Below, piece by piece: positions 1 to 44,774 of a DNA stretch of 64,000 bases. The position numbers and the translations under genes are program-made. Each line of letters starts with the position of its first letter. Positions within the stretch are counted from its first letter, which is position 1. Source of the stretch: Acidobacteriota bacterium. GTDB taxonomy: Bacteria; Acidobacteriota; Thermoanaerobaculia; Multivoradales; J023. The notes under the pieces were generated by a model. That model searched no databases, was not told the origin of the DNA, and saw nothing but the letters and a program-made list of their open reading frames with translations. The stretch is taken from positions 124,526 through 188,525 of the forward strand of contig JAJCXR010000024.1 of the NCBI GenBank assembly GCA_029263315.1, given 5' to 3'.

Positions 1-264
1 CCCCCCGAGGTCGACGCCCCGCTCCTCCAGCCATTCCCGGTAAGCACCGAAATCCGAGCCGGCGGCGGCCACCAATCGGGTGTCATGGCCCAACAACGCC
101 AAGGTATAACCGATATTGCCGGCACATCCCCCGCGTTGCTTTCGCATCTCACTGACCAGGAACGAGATGCTGATGACGTGCAGCTTGTCGGGATGGATGT
201 GGTCTTTGAAGCTGCCGGGGAAGACCATGATCTGGTCGAAAGCTAGGGAACCGGCGACGATCAC
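1..264 (-). CDS. pfkB/ribokinase-family carbohydrate kinase, N-terminal part; the gene runs off the window start
   Basis: Manual minus-strand translation gives ...VIVAGSLAFDQIMVFPGSFKDHIHPDKLHVISISFLVSEMRKQRGGCAGNIGYTLALLGHDTRLVAAAGSDFGAYREWLEERGVDLG. The GGxGxN glycine motif is typical of pfkB kinases. The GTG start at 264 is a guess; no ATG is available. Confidence 0.45.
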   Translation of the reverse strand, partial: MIVAGSLAFDQIMVFPGSFKDHIHPDKLHVISISFLVSEMRKQRGGCAGNIGYTLALLGHDTRLVAAAGSDFGAYREWLEERGVDLGG

Positions 265-2812: not shown

Positions 2813-2854
2813 GCAGCCCGGCGACGCCGCGGTGGAGCGGCCTGGGGATGGGCG

Positions 2855-3367
2855 ATGCAGCGTAAATTCGCCGTCGTCTATGGGCTGCTGGCGGCGGCGA
2901 TCCTGATCTGGCTTTACGGCAAGTGGGACAACGAAGAGCGTCGCTTGCACCAGCGACTCGAGGGTCTGGGGACGCTGGTGGAGAAGGGGGAGGCGGAAGG
3001 TAACCTGGTGGCGGCCAACAAGGGGCGGCAGGTGGCTACCTTCTTTTGTCGGGATTTCAGCATCGAGCTACGGCCCTTCGATCAAAGGGTGCAGGACCGT
3101 GGACGGCTGGCCCAGATCATGCTCGGCTACCGTCAAGGGGCCGAAAGCATCGCCGTCGGCTTCGCCAACACCGACGTCACGGTGCTGCCGGGTCATCCCC
3201 AAAGCGCCGAAATGACCACTGAGGTGACGGTTAGTGGCAGGGTGGACGGAACCTCCCGCCGAGAAGCCTACCGCTTCAGCTTTCGGTGGCTCGAGGAGGA
3301 CGGCCAATGGTGCATCGAGCAGGCGGACCTGGTGGAGATTCTGCAGGGCTGGGAGGGCCTGCTCTGA
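2855..3367 (+). CDS. Hypothetical protein with N-terminal membrane anchor
   Basis: 170-aa ORF in a coding-like frame with an N-terminal hydrophobic helix. No recognisable family. Confidence 0.45.
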   Translation: MQRKFAVVYGLLAAAILIWLYGKWDNEERRLHQRLEGLGTLVEKGEAEGNLVAANKGRQVATFFCRDFSIELRPFDQRVQDRGRLAQIMLGYRQGAESIAVGFANTDVTVLPGHPQSAEMTTEVTVSGRVDGTSRREAYRFSFRWLEEDGQWCIEQADLVEILQGWEGLL

Positions 3368-3459
3368 CGGTGGCCCCTGAGGGCCAGGCCTGTCCAAAGG
3401 CTGCTGTGGGCCGCTGGGACAGACTGAAGGCGGGAAATCGGCAAGCTGAAAATCAGAGG

Positions 3460-3545
3460 TGGTGCCGGAGGAGGGAGTCGAACCCACACGCCCTTTCGGA
3501 CAACGGATTTTGAATCCGTCGCGTCTACCATTCCGCCACTCCGGC
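3460..3545 (-). tRNA. tRNA-Leu(CAA), class II with long variable arm, CCA encoded
   Basis: Reverse complement reads GCCGGAGTGGCGGAATGGTAGACGCGACGGATTCAAAATCCGTTGTCCGAAAGGGCGTGTGGGTTCGACTCCCTCCTCCGGCACCA. It has a 7-bp acceptor stem, the anticodon loop TTCAAAA and a T-loop GGTTCGACTCC. Confidence 0.85.
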
Positions 3546-4013
3546 GTAGCTGAGAGAGCGAATGCTAGGCGTTCCAGCCAGCGGGTGTCAACAGTCAAGA
3601 TGAGGAAATCTGAGAAGAGCGCACGGGGCTGGGCCTCAACTCTTGCCACGGCAGGAAACGCACCTAGGGACCCGGGGTGGAGCGGGGTTGCTTCTAACCC
3701 ATAGATTAGGTTATAGTTCTAGCCTTGAGGGTCTTGTCTAGGCCCAGATTTTGAGATCATAGCACGTGATTTCTACATGCCAGCACCTGCCGACACCGCG
3801 CTTCAACCGGCAACATGAGGTGGCTCCTTCTGCGATGTCTTGTCATCGCAGAGCCGTCCAAATTCTCGATCGCCTTCGGCGAAGACACTCGACCAATGTG
3901 CAGGCCGCGGTACCGTCCGCACTGCGACGATATACGCTAGTTAATTCCACACCTCGGAGGCTCGATCCGCTGATCGCCATCCGCGGTGAAGGAATCTGAA
4001 AGGGGTTCTCATA

Positions 4014-4658
4014 GTGAGCTTTACGGTAGGACAAAAAGTCGTCTATCCCAACCACGGGGTCAGCCGCGTCGAAGAGATCTCAGCCGCCACATTCGACGAT
4101 GTGGAGCAAACGCTCTATCACCTTCGTCTGTTGTCCAACAACTCCAAAGTCATGGTGCCCAAGGAAAACTTGGAGTTGGTGGGTCTGCGGCCCTTGGGGG
4201 ATGAAAACGCCATCAAGGCGCTCATCGGCATCCTCGAGGATGGCAACATCGATACCTACAAGGATTGGAAAGGGCGCTACAAGCAAAACCTCGACAAGAT
4301 GAAGACCGGAGAGCTCTCCGAGGTGGCAGAGGTTCTCAAGAACCTGTGTTTGGTGAGCCAGAAGAAGAGTCTCTCGTTTCGCGAAAAGAAGATGTACGAG
4401 CGGGCCAAGTACTTCATCGTCAGCGAGATTGCACATGTCAAGGAGCTCGAGGAAGAGGATGCCGACGCCTTGGTCGAGAAAGCCCTGGAGGTGAGCCTCA
4501 AGAAGCTGGAGAAGTCTCTCGGCAGAGCCAAGGCCAAAGCGGACGCCGAAGCAGCGGAGGCCGCCGAAGAAGAGGCTCTCAACAGCGACGACGGTGATGA
4601 TGACGAGGACGACGATGATGACGATGACGGCGACGAGGTCACAGCCGCCGCCGAGTGA
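4014..4658 (+). CDS. CarD/CdnL-family RNA-polymerase-binding transcription factor with an acidic C-terminal tail
   Basis: N-terminus FTVGQKVVYPNHGVSRVEEI...KVMVP matches the CarD_CdnL_TRCF domain. GTG start is preceded by AAGGGG. The C-terminus is poly-D/E. Confidence 0.85.
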   Translation: MSFTVGQKVVYPNHGVSRVEEISAATFDDVEQTLYHLRLLSNNSKVMVPKENLELVGLRPLGDENAIKALIGILEDGNIDTYKDWKGRYKQNLDKMKTGELSEVAEVLKNLCLVSQKKSLSFREKKMYERAKYFIVSEIAHVKELEEEDADALVEKALEVSLKKLEKSLGRAKAKADAEAAEAAEEEALNSDDGDDDEDDDDDDDGDEVTAAAE

Positions 4659-4946: not shown

Positions 4947-5657
4947 GTGAGCCGCGATTCCCTGTTGTATACCTTGATCGGTTTGTTGGTCGGTTTCATC
5001 GCCGGCTTCATGCTCCATGAGTCCATGGCCAGCCGTCAGCCGGCTCCGAGCTTTGTCGGTATGGCAGAGCAGATCGGCGCCGGAGCCGCCCCCCAATCCC
5101 CCGCCCCTCGAGTCGGCGGCGCCAACGGGCCCCAGGACTCGATGCAGCAAGTGCAGCGACTCCGCCAATACGTCGAGGAGAACCCCGGCGATCTGGAGGC
5201 GCTCAAAGTCCTGGCCAATCTCAATCTCAGCATCCGCAACCTATCGCGGGCCTCGGAGCTCTTCGAGCGCTACGTGCAGCAGAAGGGTGATGACCTGGAG
5301 GTTCTCCAGGCCTATGGCAATTTGAGCTACGACCAGCAGGCTTGGCCGAAGGCGGCTGAGCTCTACGAAGCCTTCCTGGAGATCTCACCCAGCGATCATG
5401 GAGTGCGCACCGACCTGGGAGCCGTTTACCGTTACTTGGGCCGTTACGAGGATGCCTTGGCTGAGTTCGAGCGGGTGCTCCAGGCCAGACCGGATCATTG
5501 GGAAGCGCGCTTCAACGAAGTCCTGGTCAAGACCGTCGACCTCAGGGACTATGACGGTGCGGACAGGGCTCTTAAAGAGCTTCGGATCCTGCGTCCGGGG
5601 GACCCGTCCGTCGAGCGATTGGCGGCCGAGCTGGAGCGTCGCCGGCAAGGGGCTTGA
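4947..5657 (+). CDS. TPR-repeat protein with N-terminal transmembrane helix
   Basis: 236 aa. TM helix LLYTLIGLLVGFIAGFML is followed by TPR-like repeats (ALKVLANL, AYGNLSY, LGAVYRYLGRYEDALAEFERVL). Confidence 0.7.
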   Translation: MSRDSLLYTLIGLLVGFIAGFMLHESMASRQPAPSFVGMAEQIGAGAAPQSPAPRVGGANGPQDSMQQVQRLRQYVEENPGDLEALKVLANLNLSIRNLSRASELFERYVQQKGDDLEVLQAYGNLSYDQQAWPKAAELYEAFLEISPSDHGVRTDLGAVYRYLGRYEDALAEFERVLQARPDHWEARFNEVLVKTVDLRDYDGADRALKELRILRPGDPSVERLAAELERRRQGA

Positions 5658-5934: not shown

Positions 5935-8493
5935 ATGGAGCCAAATTCGCCAACTCCTGAAGACTTTGCGGCGCCGCACGGCAAGACGGGTACGCTCGCC
6001 ACCTCCGACGGCCCGGAAGCGTCCACAGACGACGCGACTCCGTCTGTGGGCGGGGCCGATGTCCCGTCCGTGGGCGGGGCTGCTGTCTATTGTCACGTTG
6101 CGGTGCCCATTCCCGTCGAGCAGGCTTTGACCTACGGGTTGCCGTCGGCCCTCCAGGACGTGCGCCCCGGCTGTCGGGTCAAGGTACCCGTCGGCCGTCG
6201 CAAGCTCACCGGCATGGTGCTGCGCACCGATGTCGAGGCGCCGACGGATTTTGCCGCCAAGGACATCTTGGAAGTGCTCGATGTCGAGCCGGTGGCGCCG
6301 ACGGACCTCCTGCTGCTGGCACAATTTGTCGCCGACTACTATCTTGCCCCCATCGGCGAGGCGGCCCGCGCCCTGGTGCCGGCGGACTTGCCACCCTGGG
6401 GCCACCGGCGCATCGCTCTCACCGACGGCGGAGCGCTGGCGGTGGTCAAAGATGCCGACGAAGGCGCCATCCTCGGTGTCCTGATGCAACAGCGTCGCCT
6501 CCGACTGGCGGATTTGAAACGCCAGTTGCCGTCGATGCCGCAACTGGCCCAAGTGCTGCGGCGGCTGCAGGAGCAGGGCCGGGTGACGGTGGAGGAGCCC
6601 GGGCGTCGGGGCAGGCGTTTTGTCAAAGCTTTGGAGCTGCGTCCCGGCGATCGCGAAGAGCAGCTTCAGCGCTGCGGACGCAGTGTCAAGGGACGGGCGG
6701 TGGTGGACTTCCTGGCGTCCTTGGGCCGCCCCGCCACCTTGAGGGAGATTCGCCAAGCGATCGATTGCGGCGATGGTGTGGTACGCCGTTTGACCTCGTT
6801 GCAGCTCTTGCGGGAGTTCACTCAACCGGAGAATCGCTCCCTGGCCCGCCATCGGTTGCAGGCTGAGGGGGCCTCGACGCTGACCTTGCGTGGCGATCAG
6901 TCGGTGGCCGTCGATGCCTTGTTGGGGGCCCTCGACGCCGGCAGCTATGCGCCGTTTCTGCTGGCCGGAATGACCGGCTCCGGCAAGACCGAAGTCTATT
7001 TGCAGGCCGTCGCCCGCTGCTTGGCCAGCGACCGTTCCGCCATTCTCATGGTGCCGGAGATCGCTCTGGTTCCCGCCCTGGCCTCCGCCGTGCGCCAGCG
7101 CTTCGGCCAAGAGCTGGCCATCCTGCACTCCAATCTCTCGCCGTCGGAGCGTTTGCAGGAGTGGGAGCGGGTGCGACGGGGCGAGGCCCGGGTCGTCCTC
7201 GGACCCCGTTCCGCCCTGCTGGCACCGGTGTCGAGGCTGGGCCTCATCGTGGTCGACGAGGAGCACGATACGTCCTACAAGCAGGACGTCACGCCGCGCT
7301 ACAACGGGCGAGACTTGGCCTTGCTGCGGGCCCGGGACCACAGAGCCGTGGCGGTGCTGGTATCCGCCACCCCGAGCCTGGAGAGTCGCCACAATGTGGC
7401 CTCGGGCAAATTACAGCGCCTAGAGCTCTTGCGGCGGGCCGGCCATGGCCAGCTGCCGGAGGGAATCCTGGTGGATTTGCGGCGCGAGCCGGGGCCCAAG
7501 CGACCGGGGGAGATCTCCTTCTCGCAGGCACTGCGGGGGGAGATCGAGGCGGCGGTCGAGGCGGGGGACCAGATCATCTTGCTGCGCAATCGGCGAGGCT
7601 ACTCGCCGCTGCTGCTGTGCCGTGCCTGCGGCGAAAACTTCCTGTGCGAAGATTGTGGCCTATCGATGACTTTCCACAAGCGACAGCATCGTTTGGTATG
7701 CCACTACTGCGCCCATGAGGTGCAAGCGCCGATGATCTGTCCGCAATGCGATGAAGCGGCCCTCGAAGCGGTGGGTGCCGGGACCGAGAGGGTCGAAGAG
7801 CAATTCCGAGATCTCTACCCTGGGGTCGCGGTCGATGTGCTGGACGCCGATGCCGGGCGCCGGGCCGGAGGAGCGGCGGCGGTGCTGGAACGATTCCGCA
7901 GCGGCCAGACACAGGTGTTGATCGGCACCCAGATGGTGGCCAAGGGGCATCATTTCCCCCGCGTTTCGCTGGCCGCCGTGTTGCACGCCGACAGCTACCT
8001 CGGATTCCCCGATTTTCGAGCCGTCGAGCGCACCTACGCTCTGCTGACCCAGTTGGCCGGTCGGGCCGGTCGCGGTGAGCAGCCGGGCAAGGTGGTGATC
8101 CAGACGTTTCACCCCGACCACTACGCCATACAGGCCGCCCTGACCGGTGATGACCGGGCCTTTATCGAAGAAGAAATGAAGTTTCGGCAGAGTTTCTTCT
8201 ATCCGCCCTTCAGTCGCATGGTGAGCTTCTTGGGACGTCACAAGGAACCGCAGAAGGTGCATCAGGCGATGCAAGAGCTGGCGCGGCGCGTCCGGCGACA
8301 CCCCCTGGCCGCCAAGGCTCGCATCACCGGTCCCGCCGCGGCGCCCTTGGAGCGCCTGCGCGGTAAGTGGCGTTTCCAGCTTCTGGTGCGCAGCGCCGCC
8401 GGCTCCCAGCTACGGCAGATGGCCCGTCAGGTGCAAGAACCCAACCTCGGTATCGAGCTGACGGTCGATGTCGATCCCTATGACTTGATGTGA
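5935..8493 (+). CDS. priA: Primosomal protein N' (replication-restart helicase PriA)
   Basis: N-terminal VAVPIPV..YGLP..G.RV.VP.GRR motif, Walker A GMTGSGKT, DEEH box, and a Cys4+Cys4 zinc-binding region (CRACG...CEDCG...CHYC...CPQC). The start could be anywhere between 5875 and 6070. Confidence 0.9.
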   Translation: MEPNSPTPEDFAAPHGKTGTLATSDGPEASTDDATPSVGGADVPSVGGAAVYCHVAVPIPVEQALTYGLPSALQDVRPGCRVKVPVGRRKLTGMVLRTDVEAPTDFAAKDILEVLDVEPVAPTDLLLLAQFVADYYLAPIGEAARALVPADLPPWGHRRIALTDGGALAVVKDADEGAILGVLMQQRRLRLADLKRQLPSMPQLAQVLRRLQEQGRVTVEEPGRRGRRFVKALELRPGDREEQLQRCGRSVKGRAVVDFLASLGRPATLREIRQAIDCGDGVVRRLTSLQLLREFTQPENRSLARHRLQAEGASTLTLRGDQSVAVDALLGALDAGSYAPFLLAGMTGSGKTEVYLQAVARCLASDRSAILMVPEIALVPALASAVRQRFGQELAILHSNLSPSERLQEWERVRRGEARVVLGPRSALLAPVSRLGLIVVDEEHDTSYKQDVTPRYNGRDLALLRARDHRAVAVLVSATPSLESRHNVASGKLQRLELLRRAGHGQLPEGILVDLRREPGPKRPGEISFSQALRGEIEAAVEAGDQIILLRNRRGYSPLLLCRACGENFLCEDCGLSMTFHKRQHRLVCHYCAHEVQAPMICPQCDEAALEAVGAGTERVEEQFRDLYPGVAVDVLDADAGRRAGGAAAVLERFRSGQTQVLIGTQMVAKGHHFPRVSLAAVLHADSYLGFPDFRAVERTYALLTQLAGRAGRGEQPGKVVIQTFHPDHYAIQAALTGDDRAFIEEEMKFRQSFFYPPFSRMVSFLGRHKEPQKVHQAMQELARRVRRHPLAAKARITGPAAAPLERLRGKWRFQLLVRSAAGSQLRQMARQVQEPNLGIELTVDVDPYDLM

Positions 8494-18727: not shown

Positions 18728-19168
18728 ATGGTCGGTGTTTTGATTGTCACCCATGGCGGTACGGCCACTGAGCTTTTGCTCGCTGCCCGCACCATCATCA
18801 AACGTCAGCTTGAGAATTTCGCAGCCCTATCCTTACCGTGGGACGCCGACCGCTCGACAGCCCGAGACGAGATCGATCAACAGATCGTTCGCTTGGACCA
18901 GGGCGCGGGTGTGCTGGTCTTGACCGATTTGTTGGGCGGTACGCCCACCAACCTGGCGATGGATCTTCGCCAGACGGGCCGAGTCGAGATCGTCTCCGGC
19001 GTCAATCTGCCGATGGTAGTGCGTTTGGGTTGTATCGGACGGCCCGATTCAGATCTCGATGCCTTGGCATCCTGGATCCAGGACAAGGCCCGCCAGGGTA
19101 TCCGCTGCGGATCCGAAATTCCTGGGAGCGCCCGCGCTCCCAATATTTGTGAGGACCCAGATGGTTGA
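18728..19168 (+). CDS. PTS mannose/fructose-family EIIA component
   Basis: MVGVLIVTHGG...VLTDLLGGTP matches the EIIA-Man fold. Conserved position between rapZ and ptsH. Confidence 0.75.
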   Translation: MVGVLIVTHGGTATELLLAARTIIKRQLENFAALSLPWDADRSTARDEIDQQIVRLDQGAGVLVLTDLLGGTPTNLAMDLRQTGRVEIVSGVNLPMVVRLGCIGRPDSDLDALASWIQDKARQGIRCGSEIPGSARAPNICEDPDG

Positions 19169-19430
19169 GCGTCACGTGACCATCCCCAACCGATACGGGC
19201 TGCATGCCCGACCCGCGGCCCAGCTCGTTCACCTGGCCAGCAGCTTCGATTGCGATGTCCGGCTGCGGGTGAGCGACGACGTGGTCGACGGCAAAAGTAT
19301 CCTCGGTATCCTCCAACTGGGGGCAGCCCAGGGCACGGATCTCGACGTGGTCTGCGAGGGCACCGACGAAGTGCCGGCGGCTGAGGCTATCAGTGAGCTG
19401 ATCAATAACGGCTTCGGTGAGGATACCTGA
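19161..19430 (+). CDS. ptsH: Phosphocarrier protein HPr/NPr
   Basis: 89 aa with active-site His in NRYGLHARPAA and Ser region GKSILGIL. Internal ATG start at 19161. Confidence 0.85.
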   Translation: MVERHVTIPNRYGLHARPAAQLVHLASSFDCDVRLRVSDDVVDGKSILGILQLGAAQGTDLDVVCEGTDEVPAAEAISELINNGFGEDT

Positions 19431-19433
19431 GCG

Positions 19434-36576: not shown

Positions 36577-37502
36577 CAGTTCACCCGCATGCTCAAGATG
36601 GCGGTGCCATCGGGTTCTAGGGCAGCGCCATGGAGCGCTCTTACAATTGGAATCTGCACTCCGGCTTCGACGATCAACCTCTTGCTGACGAGCTGAATGC
36701 CCGGTGCCAAGTAGGCGATGAAGCCGCCCGAGTCTGGATCAGCCAGGCCGCCGGCACGATTTCGGCCGGCCCACACCAGATTGCTCTCCAGGACGCCGTA
36801 GAGGAACCGGGGCAGCCCGGCCTTCAGGCGACGCGGCAGGAGCCGGTGTTGGTACGAGATGTCGAGCCGCGCCTCGTCGCCAAGCTCGAAAGCGTTGGCT
36901 TGGTCGTTGACTCGGTAGGCAATGGAGGTATCGAGCTGCCAGCCCAGAGTTTGCCAGGTGGCGACCGAACCGAAGGCGAGATCCCAGGAACCCGAGCCGA
37001 GCTGAAGCGGCGGTGGAAGCCCGCCCAGGCCATCGCGCCGGTCGTCCTCGCCGGTGGGCGCCTCGACGCCGAGGAACGGTGCCAGGCGAAAGGTTCGTCC
37101 CGGCCGGTCGCGACGAAACAGCGTATAGCGGCCCAACAAGGTGACGTCGCCCAGGCCAGAGACCTGTCGTCGCTTGCGACCGTTCGACGTCGTGAGAGCA
37201 AGCTGCTTGTCGAGGATCGGAAGAATGGCAAAGAGGGCCAGCTTGTCGGTGACACCGTAGACCCCAACCAGGGACAGAGCTTCGACCTCCAACTTTCGCT
37301 GCGCTGAAGTCGGGTCACCGGTCGACCGGAGGTACCTCGTCTGGATACGAACGATCCCTTCTCCTTCGGCGACCGGCAGGGCCGTGTTGAAGGTAATCGG
37401 TGCAGCAGCAACGTGCACGACCGCAAGACTTACACCGAAGCCCCAGACAGCGAAGACCGCCATTGGCAGAATTGCATTTCTCTGGCCAATTCGTTGCCTC
37501 AC
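36573..37502 (-). CDS. Outer-membrane beta-barrel of the 'transporter'/MetA-like family
   Basis: 309 aa with a signal peptide, alternating beta-strand pattern and a C-terminal aromatic residue (…RVNW). Confidence 0.55.
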   Translation of the reverse strand: MRQRIGQRNAILPMAVFAVWGFGVSLAVVHVAAAPITFNTALPVAEGEGIVRIQTRYLRSTGDPTSAQRKLEVEALSLVGVYGVTDKLALFAILPILDKQLALTTSNGRKRRQVSGLGDVTLLGRYTLFRRDRPGRTFRLAPFLGVEAPTGEDDRRDGLGGLPPPLQLGSGSWDLAFGSVATWQTLGWQLDTSIAYRVNDQANAFELGDEARLDISYQHRLLPRRLKAGLPRFLYGVLESNLVWAGRNRAGGLADPDSGGFIAYLAPGIQLVSKRLIVEAGVQIPIVRALHGAALEPDGTAILSMRVNW

Positions 37503-38053
37503 CTTCGCACCTCTTCAATGTGCTCGGGAGACAGCGCCGGACCAGCGTCTGACCATCGAATCTCTCCACGCAGGGTCACCGGTATGTCGCCTCGAAGAAA
37601 CTCGAGCAGACGCAGGGCGATCTCATCAGCAACATCGACCAACAACAGGCTTCCTTCGTCGTTCTCGAAGCGTAGCTGAAGGTCGCCTTCCTTTGGCCCG
37701 GCAACGACTCGGCCAGTGACCTCGATGTCCAAACTACCGGGGGTGAAGCCGGCCTTCTCGACAGCTCGTCGGACCTCTTGGACATCGATGGACTGGCCCT
37801 GTTCAGCGATGACTCGCGCTTGACCTGCCACGAGGTCGATTGTCACCTTCTCGACCGCGTCTACCTTCAAGAGGCGCTTTTCGATACCGTATCCGCAGAA
37901 CGGGCAGGCCATGCCGTCGACTGCAACCGTGGCCTTGATGACCTGGGCAGGGAGCGGACTGGCGAGCAACAGAATTAGTAGCAACGGTTTCCAAACAAGC
38001 CGCATGGCATCGCTCTCCTTCTGCGATTGGGAGCTTGGGCCCTTCAGCTTCAC
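37499..38053 (-). CDS. Secreted heavy-metal-associated (HMA) domain protein with C-terminal extension
   Basis: Signal peptide, then GMACPFCGYGIEKRL (MxCxxC metal-binding motif). 4-bp ATGA overlaps with both neighbours. Confidence 0.75.
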   Translation of the reverse strand: MKLKGPSSQSQKESDAMRLVWKPLLLILLLASPLPAQVIKATVAVDGMACPFCGYGIEKRLLKVDAVEKVTIDLVAGQARVIAEQGQSIDVQEVRRAVEKAGFTPGSLDIEVTGRVVAGPKEGDLQLRFENDEGSLLLVDVADEIALRLLEFLRGDIPVTLRGEIRWSDAGPALSPEHIEEVRR

Positions 38054-38322
38054 GCCTCCCCCTCCACGGATTGGCCGAGACCGACCTCGCGCAGCCGAGC
38101 GAGGTCCACACCGCCGCGGCAGCAGTCGGCGAGAACGCCGTCTATAACTACCGAGGGGGCTCTCGCTACGCCCTGAGCTCGAGCACGTTCCGCTACAGAG
38201 GCATCCCGAAGATCGGACACACTCACGTCACAGGAGGTGCACGCTAATTCACCTACCGCAGTGACGACCTCGTCGCACAATGGGCAACCTGCGCTGAAAA
38301 TCTCTATCGTTAGCTGACTCAT
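38050..38322 (-). CDS. Small thioredoxin-fold redox-active disulfide protein (CPxC), ars-operon type
   Basis: MSQLTIEIFSAGCPLCDEVV, about 90 aa, with AAAGGAG 8 nt upstream of the ATG. Confidence 0.65.
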   Translation of the reverse strand: MSQLTIEIFSAGCPLCDEVVTAVGELACTSCDVSVSDLRDASVAERARAQGVARAPSVVIDGVLADCCRGGVDLARLREVGLGQSVEGEA

Positions 38323-38411
38323 GGGTCGACTCCTTTCTTCCAAGTTGCAACAGAGGCACATCTTGGCATTCTTGTCGGAGAAGAAATGTGTACTGAGGCG
38401 GAACACGATCG

Positions 38412-38872
38412 TTACGCCAGCCAGGAGAGCCGCGGCGCGATGCCTCTCCCGGCATGCAGGAAGAACTTACAGCCTGAAGTCAACTTCAGAGTCAAGGGGT
38501 CCCCCAGAGAATGTTGTGTAGAGGGTCGCAAGCAGATTTGTATTGATTTGGGAGTACCAGGCTCAACCTCCCGATCAAGCCATAGCTGCGCCCGATCGAG
38601 CCTTAGTTGGCCTCCGACAGTCCTCCGACTCGTATCCGCAAAACAGCGGCGCAATGCTCGGCTCACGTAGACTAGGCTGATCAACACCGGTACATCGACC
38701 AGGGGTCCGACCGCTTTCGCAAAGGCGATCGGCGAGGCGATTCCAAAGATGCCGATGGCTATAGCGATCGCCAGCTTGAAGTTATTGCCAGAAGCGGCTC
38801 AACCCGCCGCTCAGCCCAAGGCGATGCCGGTCAGACTCCAAATCAGGAGCTTGCTGCGCAGCGACCCCGCGA
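38412..38872 (-). pseudogene. Remnant of an ACR3-family arsenite efflux pump; only the C-terminal 50-60 codons survive, interrupted by two in-frame TGA codons
   Basis: Minus-strand frame reads ...[55 protein letters not shown]..., matching the conserved ACR3 C-terminus (NF.LAIAVAI..FG..S..A.A.V.GPL.EVPV.L.LV). No upstream ACR3 body exists. Confidence 0.4.
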
Positions 38873-38995
38873 GATCTGACATGGGGTTTTCACAAGTCTT
38901 AGACCTCGATCTCATGACTCCAACAGAGAATCCTCACCGCTCCTATGGACCAGGAAGGGCCAGAATTCACGGTATTCGGAGCCTCGCACGACGAG

Positions 38996-40375
38996 TCACC
39001 GGGCTGCACGAGCTGCGCCCTTCACCATTTCGCTCAGCGTCGGATGGGCGTGAATCGACTTGCTGATTCGGTCGATTCTGCCGTTTCCGTGCATCGCAGC
39101 AACAGCCTCGTGCAGGAGATCATCACCGTGAGGTGCGAGAATGTGGAAGCCGAGGATTTGCCGGGATTCTCGATCTACAACCGCTTTGAGCAGTCCGCGT
39201 GGATCACCGATCGTTTTGGCTCGCGCGCCGTCCGCACGGACCGTGCCAACCGCCACGTCATGACCGCTCTCTCGAGCCTCGGCCTCGGTGAGACCGACTG
39301 CCGCCAGCGTCGGGTCGCTAAAGATCGCCCTCGGCACGACCCGGTAGTCGACTTCTTTCCCCAGGCCTTTGACGGCGTTCAAGGCAGCGAGGGGTCCGTC
39401 ATAGGTCGCCACGTGGGTGAACATCCAACCGCCCTTGACATCGCCGATGGCCCAGACATGCGGCTGGCTCGTCCGAAGCTGGCCGTCGACCGGAATAAAG
39501 CCCCTCGCGTCTATGTCGATACCGGCGGACCGTAGGTGGAGGCCGCCGGTGTTCCCGACCCGCCCGGCCGCAACCAGGACTTCTGCGGCACGGTACTCCT
39601 TCTCTGAGCCGTCAGTGCTACAGACGGCTATCTTCTGTCCGTTCTCGTCGCGTATCGACTGCACGGCGGCCCCGGTTCTGACGTTGATGCCCTCCTCTCG
39701 GAGGTAGTCCGCAAGGAGCTCGGAGAGCTGAGGATCCTCTCCGGGCGCCAAGCGGTCATTGCGGCCGAGGAGAGTGACCCTCGAGCCGAAGCGGGAATAC
39801 ATCTGAGCAAACTCGATTCCAACGTAGCCGCCTCCGATCACCAGGAGGCTCGACGGCACACGCCCTAAATGCAGAGCTGTATCGTTGTTCAAAGAGTCAA
39901 TAGCTTCCAGGCCCGAGATCGGAGGCACGACCCGGCGTGCCCCTGTGGCGATGATCGCCTTGGTGAAGCTGATTCGGCGATCGCCAGTGTCGATTTCGTG
40001 GGGACTGACGAATCTGGCCTCTCCTCGGACGAAATCGATCGCATCCCGTCGTTTGCTCAACGCGCCATGGATCGTCTTATGAATGCCGCTAACAATGGCG
40101 TCCTTGCGCGCCACGGCCTGATCCAGCCGAAAGCGCACGGCGCCATCGATCTCAACTCCGAGGTCGGTCGCCCGCCGGGCAACCAGGTGCATCACTTCGG
40201 CCGAGCGCAGCAAGGCCTTGGTAGGGACGCACCCCTCGTTGACTCAGGTGCCGCCGACCTCCGCGCGCTCGACGAGCGCAACCCGGGCTCCGAGGTTGGC
40301 CGCCATATGGGCGGCCGGCAGACCTCCCTGTCCAGCTCCGATCACCGCCAAGTCATAGTCATGTGATGGCATCAT
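38996..40375 (-). CDS. LpdA/GR/MerA-like flavoprotein disulfide reductase with an in-frame TGA replacing the first redox-active Cys
   Basis: From ATG 40375, preceded by GAGGGAG: MMPSHDYDLAVIGAGQGGLPAAHMAANLGARVALVERAEVGGT-TGA-VNEGCVPTKALLRSAEVMHL..., then about 415 aa of intact frame through the NAD(P) GxGxxG and the C-terminal HAHPTLSE dimerisation motif. The TGA is codon 44 at 40244-40246, where the canonical [13 protein letters not shown] has Cys. This is either a selenocysteine codon or a nonsense mutation. Confidence 0.6.
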
Positions 40376-40397
40376 GGTTCTCCCTCTACTTTGGTTT

Positions 40398-40427
40398 GTG
40401 TCAAGTTGTGTCAAGTTGTGTCAAGTC
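40398..40427. repeat. Three tandem copies of GTGTCAAGTY in the 5' region of the TGA-containing reductase gene
   Basis: gtgtcaagtt gtgtcaagtt gtgtcaagtc, 20-50 bp upstream of the ATG at 40375. Confidence 0.8.
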
Positions 40428-40461
40428 TCGCTCGAGAGCCGAGGTCCTGGGTGACGCCCGG

Positions 40462-40563
40462 CTATTCTTTCGAATCGCCGTGACGGTCACCTTCCAGCAC
40501 AGTGCCGGCCGAAAGGGCAGCAACAACCAGCAGGATCGAAGCATGAGTGAGCTTGGGATTCAT
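40462..40563 (-). CDS. Possible 33-aa secreted peptide between merA and the TGA-reductase gene
   Basis: MNPKLTHASILLVVAALSAGTVLEGDRHGDSKE, with a strong SD (AAGGAGAAGGGTCC-ATG). It is below the ORF-track length cut-off. Confidence 0.35.
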   Translation of the reverse strand: MNPKLTHASILLVVAALSAGTVLEGDRHGDSKE

Positions 40564-40617
40564 GGACCCTTCTCCTTCGGAGTGATGAGCGTGCCGACGA
40601 CGCTTCGTCGGCTAGGG

Positions 40618-42380
<1,763 letters not shown>

Positions 42381-42409
42381 CATCTCGTGTTCTCCTTGTC
42401 TCAGGTGGC

Positions 42410-42751
42410 CTACAACAGCCACGATGCGTAGTACGGAAACGCCATCAAGGCGACCGCGACGGTCGCTACGATCCACAGCACAATGCGGTGCCGCCGCCGG
42501 CTCTTGGGGACCGCGCAGGCTTCCCCCGGCTCGCACTCCACCGGCCTGTAGGCCTGATAGAAGGCGAAGCCTAGGAAGATGAGGGTCAGCCCTGCGAACC
42601 AGGGGCGAAGGGGCTCGAGCTTCGCTCCCAGGGCCGCCGACCCGACCCCGAGGACCGCCACAGCGACTGGCAGGATGCAGCACAGCGAAGCACCAAAAGC
42701 AGCGATCACGGCTCCGGCGTTGACAAACACGTTCTTCTTGGTTTCTTCCAT
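42410..42751 (-). CDS. merT: Mercuric ion transport protein MerT
   Basis: Three TM helices. TM1 has the Cys-Cys pair (GASLCCILPV). The cytoplasmic loop has the second Cys pair ECEPGEACAVP. The C-terminus VLWIVATVAVALMAFPYY is MerT-like. Confidence 0.75.
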   Translation of the reverse strand: MEETKKNVFVNAGAVIAAFGASLCCILPVAVAVLGVGSAALGAKLEPLRPWFAGLTLIFLGFAFYQAYRPVECEPGEACAVPKSRRRHRIVLWIVATVAVALMAFPYYASWLL

Positions 42752-42769
42752 CGGGTGCTCCCGTTCAAT

Positions 42770-43090
42770 TCAGCTCTGCTTGAGCAAGGTAGCGAGGACT
42801 TTGGTGACCTTCTTGAGCCGCTCGTCCGGGTCGCCTTCCATGCAGGTATTCATGCAGGAGTGCAGCTCGTGCTCCAGCAGCACAGCGGAGAAGCGATTGA
42901 GTGCCGCCTTGACCGCGGATACCTGCAGCAGGATTTCGTCGGCGCACCGCTCCTCCTCGAGCATCTGGCCGACGCTCCGAAGGTGCCCTTCGAGCCGTGC
43001 AAGCCTGTTGCGCAAAGCGCGTTTCGCAGCCTCGTCTAGGTATCCGAGACCGGCTGGATGGGAGGTCGAAAGATCGTTCTTCGAAATCAT
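42770..43090 (-). CDS. CsoR/RcnR/FrmR-family (DUF156) metal-sensing transcriptional repressor
   Basis: 106 aa with ARLEGHLRSVGQMLEEERCADEILLQVSAVKAALN and the C-H-C ligand pattern (C..H..C). AAGGAGAA SD. Sits 18 bp upstream of merT. Confidence 0.8.
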   Translation of the reverse strand: MISKNDLSTSHPAGLGYLDEAAKRALRNRLARLEGHLRSVGQMLEEERCADEILLQVSAVKAALNRFSAVLLEHELHSCMNTCMEGDPDERLKKVTKVLATLLKQS

Positions 43091-43118
43091 GAAAAGGTTC
43101 TCCTTCTTTGGACTGGTT

Positions 43119-43137
43119 TATCCCCCCCGGGGGGATA
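43119..43137. promoter_or_regulatory. Candidate CsoR-type operator: G/C-tract palindrome TATCCCCCCC-GGGGGGATA
   Basis: Near-perfect dyad 29 bp upstream of the csoR-like start codon. CsoR-family operators are typically C-tract/G-tract inverted repeats. Confidence 0.45.
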
Positions 43138-43379
43138 CCTCAATCTAACACTACGCAGCAGCCTCGAGCTCGGTTCATTCCTACTTGCCGAGTGGGGAAA
43201 ACTGCGTCTTGGTGCTGATCGATCGATCGAGCTTGGAGGGAACCGACTGAGGGGGGGCCAGGGCAACCGGTGTCACCTCGTCTACCTGAGTCAGGGATCT
43301 TGACGAGACCGGAGTTTCCGGGTTGCTGTTCTTCTCAATCTCGAGACGGGGAATCGCCCACGAGCCGTCCGGGCGCCGA

Positions 43380-44774
43380 CTAGCGCTCCGCCGTCAACAG
43401 CAACGGCGCCAGCTCCGCCAAGTCCTCAACGACGACGGTGGCCAACCCCTCGGGAACGACCCGCAGGTCCCCGGGTGGTAGGAAGACCTGGCGGAACCCC
43501 AAGGCGGCGATTTCCCGCAGCCGGGCCTCGGTCTGCGACACCGGTCGGACCTCCCCCAGCAGGCCGACTTCGCCGAAGAAGACGGCCTCGTGGGGCAGGG
43601 GTCGCTCCCGCTCGGCGCTGAGCATGGCGGCGGCGATGGCCAGATCGGCGGCGGGTTCTTTGAGCTGGAGGCCACCGACCACGTTGAGGAAAAGGTCCCG
43701 GTCGCCGAGTCCCAGACCGCCGAAACGCTCGAGCACGGCGGCCAGCAGGATGCTGCGATGGCGGTCGACGCCGACGCTCATGCGGCGGGGGGATGGGAAG
43801 CTGGTGGGATGAATGAGCGCTTGCACTTCCACCAGCAGGGGGCGGGTGCCGTGCAGGCTGGCACACACCGCCGAGCCGGGACGATGTCCGCGGCGCCGGG
43901 CCAGCAGCACCCGGGACGGATCTTTGACCGCCACCAGGCCGTTGTCATGCATCTCGAACATGGCCACCTCGCCGGTGGGCCCGAAGCGGTTCTTCTGGGC
44001 CCGCAGAACCCGGTACTCGGAATGGCTCTCACCCTCGAAGGTGAGGACCGTATCGACCAGATGCTCCAAAGATTTTGGCCCGGCGATGGCGCCGTCTTTG
44101 GTCACGTGGCCGACCAGGAAGAGAGCCATGTCATAGCCCTTGGCCAGCTCGACCAGGCGATCGGCACAGGCCCGCACTTGACCGATCGAACCAGGCGGGC
44201 CACTGAGCTCTTGGCTGCGCAGGGCTTGCACCGAGTCGACCAGCACCATGTGGGGACGACGTTCGCTGATCACCTGTAGCAGCGGTTCGAGTCGGGTTTC
44301 TCCAGCAACGTGCAGCGTCTCGGCTTCACACCCCAGGCGGCTGGCCCGCAGGTGCAGCTGCCTGGGGCTCTCCTCGGCGCTGAGATAGAGCACTGAGGCG
44401 CCGCTGCTGGCCAGGTCGTTGCCCATTTGCAGCAGTAGGGTGGACTTGCCGATGCCCGGCTCGCCGGACAGCAAGACGGCACCGCCGGGCACGATGCCGC
44501 CACCCAGAACGCGGTCGATCCATGGTGAGCCGGTCGACAGTCGGCTCCCTTCGTCGGCCACGATGTCCCGTAAGGGCTGGACGATGGTGGCCGGGCCTTG
44601 GCCCTTGAGGCGGGAGGAGGAGGCCGTAGGCGCCAAACCGCCGCCGCGGCTACCCCGCTCCTCCACTTCCTCGCTGAACGAGTCCCAGGCGCCGCAGTCC
44701 GGGCAGCGACCCAGCCACTTTGGGCTGCGGTAGCTACAGCTCTGGCAGATGTGGATCGATCGCGGTGCGGCCAT
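43380..44774 (-). CDS. radA: DNA repair protein RadA/Sms
   Basis: N-terminal zinc finger CQSCSYRSPKWLGRCPDCGAW, RecA-like Walker A GEPGIGKST, and a Lon-like C-terminal domain. Confidence 0.9.
   Translation of the reverse strand: MAAPRSIHICQSCSYRSPKWLGRCPDCGAWDSFSEEVEERGSRGGGLAPTASSSRLKGQGPATIVQPLRDIVADEGSRLSTGSPWIDRVLGGGIVPGGAVLLSGEPGIGKSTLLLQMGNDLASSGASVLYLSAEESPRQLHLRASRLGCEAETLHVAGETRLEPLLQVISERRPHMVLVDSVQALRSQELSGPPGSIGQVRACADRLVELAKGYDMALFLVGHVTKDGAIAGPKSLEHLVDTVLTFEGESHSEYRVLRAQKNRFGPTGEVAMFEMHDNGLVAVKDPSRVLLARRRGHRPGSAVCASLHGTRPLLVEVQALIHPTSFPSPRRMSVGVDRHRSILLAAVLERFGGLGLGDRDLFLNVVGGLQLKEPAADLAIAAAMLSAERERPLPHEAVFFGEVGLLGEVRPVSQTEARLREIAALGFRQVFLPPGDLRVVPEGLATVVVEDLAELAPLLLTAER

Follow-up and report, generated by a model that had tools for sequence, protein, structure and literature searches.

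A candidate selenocysteine-containing flavoprotein disulfide reductase encoded mostly beside mercury-resistance genes

The DNA considered here, referred to as the window, is a stretch of 64,000 nucleotides from contig JAJCXR010000024.1 of an Acidobacteriota bacterium (GenBank assembly GCA_029263315.1). Its minus strand carries a gene with an in-frame TGA at codon 44, the column of the first redox-active Cys in the flavoprotein disulfide reductases (FDRs). Sequence comparison makes it very probable that this is a genuine selenoprotein gene, in which the UGA would be read as selenocysteine (Sec); the gene and its orthologues are called Sec-FDR below. The best explanation overall, with a probability of roughly 0.6, is that Sec-FDR is a Sec-containing class I FDR acting in mercury detoxification.

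The in-frame TGA and its conservation

The TGA at codon 44 is the sole internal stop of the 459-codon frame (context AEVGGT-*-VNEGCVPTK; Table 1), and this copy bears no other lesion. A preliminary description of the DNA had noted a lone stop at the first redox-active Cys, a frame intact on both sides and a good Shine-Dalgarno sequence before the ATG. These observations hold, since the translation runs in a single frame and the sequence GAGGGAG lies 6-12 nt 5' of the ATG. An independent Logan assembly of run SRR15505518 (locus L001, a 1.8-kb contig) has the identical TGA, which speaks against a misread TGC or TGT. A reassigned genetic code was considered and rejected. Indeed, UGA is the commonest genuine stop in the window, where it closes 40 of the 65 long open reading frames (ORFs), and it terminates Sec-FDR itself (38998..38996).

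The conceptual full-length protein, with U written as C, was searched against 5.8 billion proteins, and the best 120 matches were evaluated. These homologues, 66-78% identical over 85-90% of the query and 396-415 aa long, all begin past codon 44, at whichever usable start comes first, in some cases codon 45 (MNEGC.../VNEGC...). Gene callers report codons 1-43 as a separate ORF of 42-43 aa with FAD-binding Pfam matches. The DNA of relatives was taken from species-representative genomes, metagenomes and an exact look-up, which yields 19 distinct orthologous loci, window included. TGA occupies the codon-44 column in all 19 (51-78% identity) and is never replaced by TAA or TAG. Five loci belong to named genomes, namely two Gemmatimonadota metagenome-assembled genomes (MAGs), one Myxococcales, one Anaerolineales and one Neomarinimicrobiota MAG, at 51-73% identity, and these lineages represent at least four bacterial phyla. 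The others are metagenome contigs, and all carriers found are metagenome-assembled. The orthologous TGAs come from NCBI, ENA, JGI and Logan assemblies.

More distant paralogues, from about 150 loci with 36-44% identity, have a Cys codon (TGC/TGT) in this column. After clustering of a library at 50% identity, none of the full-length Cys-type representatives is as much as 50% identical to Sec-FDR, the nearest Cys forms being about 45% identical, and a neighbour-joining (NJ) tree unites the TGA-bearing genes in a single clade. None of the orthologues retrieved encodes Cys, and the earlier judgement that a chance nonsense mutation at this codon is improbable is reinforced by the 19 identical columns. 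Among 18 orthologues aligned by codon, the segment that precedes the TGA (codons 1-43, with values taken over codons 6-45) differs non-synonymously in 0.08-0.26 of pairs and synonymously in about 0.6. This segment is therefore translated in frame under purifying selection, which acts on both halves of the gene. Codons 1-43 would be of no use unless the ribosome reads past the UGA. The conservation of the TGA, the selection, the independent assembly and the stem-loop described below argue together for the Cys-to-Sec substitution first suggested for this redox-active site.

Two side observations concern individual relatives. The orthologue at locus L084 contains an extra in-frame stop at about 4089-4091, at the invariant Gln304 (…LQSS*PHIWAIGD…), which marks either a damaged copy or an assembly error. 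A more distant clade (P0142, P0163, P0155 and P0159; 40-44% identity) is N-truncated at the same point as the Sec-FDR homologues. For P0142 (ENA ERZ27301951, a 9.2-kb contig; genes 2681-2812 and 2813-4081), an FAD-binding ORF of 43 aa ends where an ORF of 422 aa (MNTGCIPTK...) starts, and the neighbour is a multicopper oxidase gene, not mer genes. From this protein-level truncation, the P0142-like clade is a candidate and may represent an independent or older Sec substitution.

The hairpin after the UGA and other UGA-containing genes

A hairpin resembling a selenocysteine insertion sequence (SECIS) follows the UGA within the coding sequence. RNAalifold, applied to the 75 nt from the UGA of 19 sequences, pairs +13..+20 with +55..+62 in an 8-bp outer helix, which in the window joins GGGUGCGU (40234..40227) to AUGCACCU (40192..40185) and whose 5' arm includes the codon of Cys49. 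In this helix, 97% of cells are paired, and three sequences have AU in place of GC at one pair. With all three tiers included, the hairpin is 88% paired, versus 27-42% with slid partners, and four of its pairs are changed on both sides, a count reached by 12 of 500 shuffles. Synonymous diversity has its minimum for the whole gene at codons 41-65, just after the UGA (0.34-0.42 versus about 0.55-0.70 elsewhere). For a stability test, 66 nt of each orthologue were set against synonymous sequences for its peptide, built by redrawing codons from that gene. The minimum free energy (MFE) lies below these resampled controls in 18/18 orthologues (mean z about -1.2), whereas twelve control blocks elsewhere in the gene give mean z values of -0.54 to +0.52.

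The hairpin apex occurs in two registers, following amino-acid and codon choices. Sequences of the type K-A...R(CGC)-S-A, including the window, pair GGCC with GGCC (+30..33 with +45..48), with compensatory changes in L004 and L083, and those of the type K-T...R(AGG/CGG) have a GACC(UU)/(AA)GGUC apex. In the window, this apical helix (40217..40214 with 40202..40199) carries a 2-bp ministem and a UGC loop (40209..40207) at 34 nt from the UGA. The published model of bacterial SECIS (bSECIS) elements describes an apical loop of 3-9 nt with G in its first two positions, an upper stem of at least 4 bp, a spacing of 16-37 nt and an MFE of at most -7.5 kcal/mol (PMC13188914 Fig. 2). One subclade of four orthologues (L005, L006, L086 and L087), with a stem of 6-7 bp and a GUU loop at 32 nt from the UGA, corresponds exactly to this model. 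The window does so only through its interrupted apex (UGC loop, 34 nt, -24 kcal/mol). On these comparative data, the hairpin is well supported as a conserved structure but appears only partly canonical as a SECIS.

Five further in-frame TGAs, each at the first Cys of a CxxC motif, are found on the orthologue contigs. Two of them lie in genes for MerP/CopZ-like heavy-metal-associated (HMA) proteins that have GMT-U-xxC for GMTCxxC (L002, TGA at 1849 (+); L170, TGA at 5141 (-)), the L002 gene being placed directly between merT and Sec-FDR. The best NCBIfam model for these proteins is NF041115, 'metal-binding (seleno)protein', with scores below its cutoff. The other three lie in genes for a protein of about 180-211 aa with the motif SPT-U-PVC (L162 11289-11924, L164 9030-9662 and L170 3710-4258), which adjoin Sec-FDR or lie within mer clusters. 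Clear hairpins with GGU or GGUG loops follow three of the five TGAs, namely in the L170 HMA gene (GGU loop) and in the SPT-U-PVC genes of L162 and L164 (GGACAA-GGUG-UUGUCC), GCCGCUGG-GGU-CCAGCGGC also being among these bSECIS hairpins; the L170 SPT-U-PVC copy has no clear hairpin. No Pfam or NCBIfam model matches the SPT-U-PVC protein. Most of its 89 database relatives are truncated just after the U, and Cys forms exist in P0302 (SPTCPVC) and L088 (1620-2039, DPTCPGC). The protein is a candidate selenoprotein family missing from the catalogues and may be a redox partner of Sec-FDR. These UGA-at-CxxC genes on L002, L162, L164 and L170 may be an indirect sign of Sec use on contigs that carry Sec-FDR.

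Scanning the window for further UGAs flanked by coding signal or near Cys revealed no convincing second selenoprotein gene. A TGA at about 19428 (+), with strong coding signal on both sides, was rejected as a recoding site, as it is the ordinary stop of ptsH (HPr, 19020-19430); the GTG start of ptsI (enzyme I) follows at 19431 in the same frame. Homologues of selD were found only beside Cys-type paralogues (L057 7498-8523, L069 8631-9647 and L132 6901-7653). In L057 and L069, two Blastocatellia MAGs, selD lies 0.4-1.5 kb upstream of the paralogue, and L132 is a metagenome contig. This placement hints at a wider tie between the flavoenzyme subfamily and selenium metabolism.

Enzyme class, mercury context and competing explanations

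With U replaced by C, Sec-FDR passes marginally the NCBIfam model TIGR01350 for lipoamide dehydrogenase (414.1 bits, cutoff 408.8). It stays below the cutoffs of TIGR02053 for MerA (412.6 bits, cutoff 454.45, versus 554 bits for the MerA of the window) and of the PRK06370-type 'FAD-containing oxidoreductase' (403 bits, cutoff 629). E-values are 1e-120 or better for the top three NCBIfam class I models, and the homologues carry the Pfam domains Pyr_redox_2, Pyr_redox and Pyr_redox_dim (PF07992/PF00070/PF02852). The best solved relative is MerA 5x1y (295 bits, residues 5-455), followed by lipoamide dehydrogenases (1ebd, 266 bits), and U44-VNEG-C49 aligns with the redox-active CxxxxC of 5x1y and 1ebd. 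The FAD motif GAGQGG occupies residues 13-18. The LLGRNDR segment after the second dinucleotide-binding motif contains no acidic residue, which suggests an NADPH-type enzyme. The predicted fold and active-site positions are fixed by homology to the solved structures of MerA and of dihydrolipoyl dehydrogenase (E3), and by the same homology Sec-FDR is a class I FDR with a putative Sec at the interchange position.

In glutathione reductase, lipoamide dehydrogenase and Tn501 MerA, the N-terminal Cys of the redox pair is the interchange residue facing the substrate, and the C-terminal Cys is the charge-transfer thiol next to the flavin. Because the N-terminal Cys has this role in the class, the Sec of Sec-FDR would occupy the substrate-facing position. 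The acid-base residues H444 and E449 (HxHPTLSE) do not vary among 23 members of the family, nor among all 18 aligned orthologues. The C-terminus of Sec-FDR reads ...VKGAARAAR, and no aligned orthologue ends in a Cys pair, in contrast to the four MerA sequences aligned (...LSCCA(G/A)). The column of the second MerA Tyr ('KY') holds Tyr in 10 of the 18 aligned orthologues and His in 7, the window being among the latter. Sec-FDR has neither a C-terminal Gly-Cys-Sec-Gly tail nor a second UGA. The preliminary description had implied a second MerA, which is not borne out: MerA proper is rejected, as the C-terminal Cys pair is absent, His replaces Tyr and the TIGR02053 score is below cutoff.

Genes of mer type stand beside Sec-FDR in 14/19 loci. 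In ten of these, some on contigs reaching 21 kb, no canonical merA is present on the contig. Their gene orders are merR-merT-merP(U)-SecFDR (L002), merR-merT-merP-SecFDR with an unannotated gap of 0.8-1.7 kb before SecFDR (L003 and L006), merT-merP-SecFDR (L082), merP-SecFDR (L004), merR-SecFDR (L084 and L087), merT-merP-zfCopZ-arsR-SecFDR (L165), merR-zfCopZ-SecFDR-DsbD-like (L167) and merR-...-merE-SecFDR (L171). The L005 contig begins at SecFDR, which is followed by a merP-like gene. A canonical merA precedes SecFDR or lies near it in the window (csoR-merT-merP-merA-[gap]-SecFDR), L170 and L086. L170 is close to the window element, with the same merA-SecFDR order, 79% identity in MerA and 69% in CsoR. 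Transposases are frequent neighbours of Sec-FDR, which fits its scatter across phyla. As a side observation, a C-terminal MerA fragment lies in another frame directly after the L086 Sec-FDR (7472-7708), whose own C-terminus is altered, and a complete merA lies 4.4 kb upstream; the fragment looks like a remnant of a rearrangement between merA and Sec-FDR.

These associations make a mercury-linked role of some kind probable. MerT and MerP import Hg(II), and import in the absence of a reductase is deleterious. Since SecFDR stands at the place of merA in such clusters, it would supply the reductive step. In the proposed mechanism, SelB and Sec-tRNA(Sec), recruited by the hairpin of about 50 nt that begins 9 nt after the UGA, would decode UGA44 as Sec, which would replace the N-terminal interchange Cys while Cys49 is kept as the flavin-proximal residue. 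Electrons would pass from NAD(P)H, presumably NADPH, to FAD, then to the Cys49-S-Se-Sec44 selenenylsulfide and to the substrate, His444' and Glu449' serving as the acid-base pair. The selenolate, which binds mercury strongly, could catch Hg(II) directly as a Se-Hg-S chelate, stripping it from its thiol ligands, and the C-terminal Cys shuttle of MerA would then be unnecessary. Where merA is also present, as in the window and L170, Sec-FDR may be an auxiliary or alternative reductase. Hg(II) itself is the likeliest single substrate, ahead of a partner protein or disulfide, although with odds somewhat below even. A tentative proposal, slightly more doubtful still, is that of a Sec-dependent Hg(II) reductase replacing MerA in Gemmatimonadota and other uncultured lineages, together with the putative GMT-U-xxC (MerP/CopZ-like) and SPT-U-PVC selenoproteins.

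Several observations weigh against Sec decoding or against mercury as the substrate. ARAGORN detects no tRNA-Sec in the 64-kb window or the 19 orthologue loci, and tblastn with E. coli SelA, SelB and SelD finds nothing in the window or near any Sec-FDR among the fetched loci. The apex of the window subclade is non-canonical, being a 4-bp GGCC/GGCC helix with an interrupted top, and a strict bSECIS pattern filter is passed by only about 10 of 18 orthologues. No Rfam SECIS family is found around the UGA at E<=10, and at the gathering threshold the whole window yields tRNA-Leu only. The covariation of the hairpin is modest because the protein is highly conserved in this segment. The stem-loop expected 3' of the UGA is conserved in comparative data and coincides with the synonymous minimum, but it is not significant as a single-sequence fold: 81 nt of the window alone give an MFE of -31.1 kcal/mol and z = -0.12 versus dinucleotide shuffles. 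As single-sequence folding is uninformative in DNA of 62% GC, it was replaced by the comparative tests. On the side of function, five of the 19 loci have no mer gene nearby (L083, L085, L162/L163, L164 and L168/L169), and many contigs are short, so that merA could lie past their ends. Against Hg(II) as substrate stand the retained His-Glu dyad of the disulfide reductases, the absence of both MerA hallmarks (C-terminal CC and Tyr) and the NJ tree, which groups Sec-FDR with non-MerA relatives.

The best-placed alternative, although unlikely, accepts the selenoprotein but sees in it a selenenylsulfide/disulfide reductase that would draw on NAD(P)H to maintain a thiol or selenol carrier in its reduced state under mercury stress. 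Such a relationship would resemble that of thioredoxin reductase and thioredoxin. Candidate partners are the SPT-U-PVC protein, thioredoxin-like proteins of the MTH895/ArsE type, HMA/CopZ-type (seleno)proteins, a low-molecular-weight thiol or a Se compound. The invariant His444/Glu449 dyad, where MerA has Tyr for His, the missing C-terminal Cys pair and the position outside the MerA clade all agree with this explanation, and the presence of a canonical merA as well in three loci (the window, L170 and L086) points to some other function. A thioredoxin-fold-like U/CxxC protein adjoins Sec-FDR in L162 and L164 and shares its mer cluster in L170. In L088, the Cys-type FDR relative occurs together with the Cys form of this protein, and a Thioredoxin_3 protein directly follows Sec-FDR in the window. 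However, such partner candidates occur in a minority of loci only, and the ten loci with Sec-FDR at the place of merA and no merA on the contig would be left importing Hg(II) without reducing it.

A second, very unlikely explanation dispenses with Sec. The UGA would be read as Cys or Trp by near-cognate decoding, or it would terminate translation, giving a 43-aa peptide and a separately initiated protein of about 400 aa. The lack of Sec machinery in the 64-kb window and the non-canonical SECIS apex of the window type are in keeping with this, as are the start codons that gene callers find soon after the UGA in every orthologue. Yet these internal starts vary among orthologues (codons 45, 50, 55 and 62), none being conserved, and a product initiated there would be without the FAD-binding GxGxxG and without the first redox residue. 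Furthermore, in every locus the stop is a TGA located in the Cys column, the segment 3' of it is structured and synonymously constrained, and the same contigs bear further genes with UGA at a Cys position, of which three have canonical hairpins.

It is still less credible that Sec-FDR serves a 2-oxoacid dehydrogenase or glycine-cleavage complex as an ordinary E3 with an incidental Sec. The TIGR01350 score just over its cutoff and the HAHPTLSE motif agree with an E3, but the MerA models score equally and the best match among solved structures is a MerA. No E1, E2 or glycine-cleavage gene lies near Sec-FDR in the window or in eight distinct Pfam-annotated orthologue places, where the neighbours found are mer or metal genes or mobile elements; the remaining loci were screened for mer-type genes only. 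An E3 function is rejected on this gene context. Finally, a pseudogene, nonsense mutation or sequencing error in a Cys-type reductase gene, as a lone stop in an otherwise ordinary enzyme gene and the second, clearly damaging stop of L084 might suggest, is hardly credible against an identical TGA in an independent assembly and in 19/19 orthologues from at least four phyla, whose origin in NCBI, ENA, JGI and Logan assemblies does not suggest an artefact of one shared pipeline, purifying selection on both sides of the stop and a clade without any Cys-type member.

Around Sec-FDR, the window contains a cluster headed by a CsoR/RcnR-type repressor and including merT, merP and merA, and downstream lie genes for a thioredoxin-like and an HMA-domain protein (Table 1), with MerR-family and ArsR-family regulators further on. 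The preliminary description had placed Sec-FDR inside a mer operon directly downstream of merA. The order of the genes agrees with this, but Sec-FDR and merA are separated by a gap of 242 nt, in which an inverted repeat, an ORF of 33 codons and three tandem copies of ACTTGACACA occur, so that co-transcription is putative and operon membership is plausible. The corresponding gap is only about 30 nt in L170.

Some features of this gap are recorded as side observations. The ACTTGACACA unit is perfectly repeated three times in tandem (40397-40426 (-)), with TTGACA in each copy, and the array ends 21 nt before the Sec-FDR start codon. Nowhere else in the window does the unit occur exactly: 6 near-matches are found versus 1.5 expected, and the three exact ones are these copies. 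None of the 17 other orthologues inspected has the triple repeat in its upstream region. A promoter, an operator or a slippage product would be possible explanations. The 33-codon ORF (40461-40562 (-); MNPKLTHASILLVVAALSAGTVLEGDRHGDSKE) has a Shine-Dalgarno sequence and encodes a hydrophobic core without Cys. The inverted repeat GCCGACGA-AGCG-TCGTCGGC (about 40588-40607 (-)) lies just 3' of the merA stop and has no T-run. A scan of 38800-43400 for sigma-70 promoters and terminators gives nothing above shuffles.

Table 1. Features of Sec-FDR and its surroundings, in window coordinates
Feature	Position	Strand	Basis or remark
Sec-FDR coding sequence (putative selenoprotein flavoprotein disulfide reductase)	38996..40375	-	459 codons including Sec44; single-frame translation, domain models
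In-frame UGA, codon 44, proposed selenocysteine at the interchange-Cys position of CxxxxC	40244..40246	-	Alignment with orthologues and paralogues
Codons 1-43, first beta-alpha-beta of the FAD-binding Rossmann fold (VIGAGQGG)	40247..40375	-	Translation, codon alignment
Cys49 codon (TGC), flavin-proximal charge-transfer Cys of U-x4-C	40229..40231	-	Aligned with CxxxxC of MerA 5x1y and lipoamide dehydrogenase 1ebd
SECIS-like hairpin, +13 to +62 from the U of UGA	40185..40234	-	RNAalifold consensus, pairing/compensation counts, synonymous minimum, MFE test
GGGYVG, residues 181-186, second dinucleotide-binding motif (NAD(P)H)	39818..39835	-	Invariant G181, G182, G183, Y184 and G186
His444-Pro-Thr-Leu-Ser-Glu449, acid-base dyad	39029..39046	-	Aligned with 'apyltmae' (MerA 5x1y) and 'ahptlge' (1ebd)
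184-aa HMA-domain protein, downstream of Sec-FDR	37499..38053	-	Domain search
MTH895/ArsE-type thioredoxin-like protein (Thioredoxin_3, CPLC), downstream of Sec-FDR	38050..38406	-	Domain search
Canonical merA without NmerA domain, C-terminal ...QLSCCAG	40618..42030	-	NF010311 755 bits, TIGR02053 554 bits, both above cutoff
merP-like periplasmic HMA protein (signal peptide, GMTCGGC)	42027..42383	-	Model search
merT-like Hg(II) transporter	42410..42751	-	Model search
CsoR/RcnR-type metal-sensing repressor, cluster head	42770..43090	-	PF02583

Novelty and comparison with known systems

Sec-FDR would belong to the usual type of bacterial selenoprotein, in which Cys is replaced by Sec, but neither its enzyme class nor the flavin-adjacent position of the Sec has been catalogued so far, and it occurs in a mercury context. 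To our knowledge, the only known Sec enzyme of the class is the animal thioredoxin reductase, where Sec lies on a flexible tail. The review of Zhang et al. (May 2026) lists 119 prokaryotic selenoprotein families or subfamilies and includes no reductase of the DLD, GR or MerA type (PMC13188914 Table 1). Its only FAD enzymes are a CoA-disulfide-reductase-like protein and the type III sulfide:quinone reductase, and its 'putative mercuric reductase' entry is a UxxU metal-binding HMA protein (PMC13188914). A family like Sec-FDR is mentioned neither in a 2022 review nor in the deep-Sep and BSepDB papers, and the open-access literature, to which the search was confined (subscription journals lying outside its scope), holds nothing relevant linking merA or mercuric reductase with selenocysteine. 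In NCBIfam release 20, no model covers this family as a selenoprotein. The public copies seen consist of a truncated oxidoreductase and an orphan ORF of 42-43 aa, or are nameless; NCBI calls the truncated form of one member 'NAD(P)/FAD-dependent oxidoreductase'. At least 120 sequence clusters are thus mis-called.

If the proposed decoding is right, Sec-FDR would be the first class I FDR with Sec in the flavin-adjacent redox centre. Sec beside the flavin would be a new arrangement, offering a natural experiment on the role of selenium in electron transfer from flavin to chalcogen. The affinity between Hg and Se is mostly treated as a matter of toxicity, since Hg poisons selenoenzymes. A Sec that touches Hg(II) within mer operons, often instead of merA, would reverse this picture and represent a selenium-based route to mercury resistance, and surveys of environmental mercury-reduction potential based on merA would overlook a whole guild.

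Among known systems, MerA (TIGR02053/NF010311; PDB 5x1y and 1zk7) shares with Sec-FDR the fold, the redox motif GGTxVNxGCVP(S/T)K, the likely NADPH-type second Rossmann motif and the niche after merR/merT/merP. Sec-FDR differs in the putative Sec for the first redox Cys, in its ...AARAAR end where MerA has ...LSCCAG, in HAHPTLSE (His444) where MerA has FPYLTMVE (Tyr), and in its position outside the MerA clade of the NJ tree. The dihydrolipoyl dehydrogenase/glutathione reductase type (TIGR01350; 1ebd) has the same domain order, CxxxxC position and HxHPTLSE dyad, whereas Sec-FDR would carry an interchange Sec, sits in a metal-resistance context instead of one of E1/E2 and has a probably NADPH-like beta2 end. 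The closest full-length Cys homologues, at about 45% identity (GGTCLNRGCIPTK...HIHPTLAEG; P0141, P0145 and the L088 gene), have Cys (TGC/TGT) where the Sec-FDR clade has UGA. They share with it the His-Glu dyad and the lack of a C-terminal CC, and the L088 copy also lies downstream of merA (merR-merT-merP-merA), near a Cys-type SPT-C-PxC-like protein. As these relatives are themselves uncharacterised, they give no clue to function.

The catalogued bacterial FAD selenoproteins are the CoA-disulfide reductase-like family (TIGR03385, UGxP) and the type III sulfide:quinone reductase (NF049943, HxxU) (PMC13188914 Table 1). They belong with Sec-FDR to the superfamily of flavoproteins with two dinucleotide-binding domains and likewise have Sec at a redox Cys, but they represent other subfamilies (single-Cys Nox/CoADR and SQR) with other Sec motifs, and Sec-FDR scores 86 bits against TIGR03385 (cutoff 579). 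The precedent for Sec in a class I FDR is the mammalian-type high-Mr thioredoxin reductase, with its Cys-Sec selenenylsulfide redox centre. In that enzyme, Sec belongs to a C-terminal GCUG extension, the flavin-adjacent CVNVGC is all-Cys and the SECIS lies in the 3'-UTR. Sec-FDR, which has no GCUG tail, was rejected as an enzyme of this type. Indeed, its predicted Sec would lie inside the flavin-adjacent centre itself, no C-terminal redox tail is present and the putative signal is a bacterial hairpin within the coding region.

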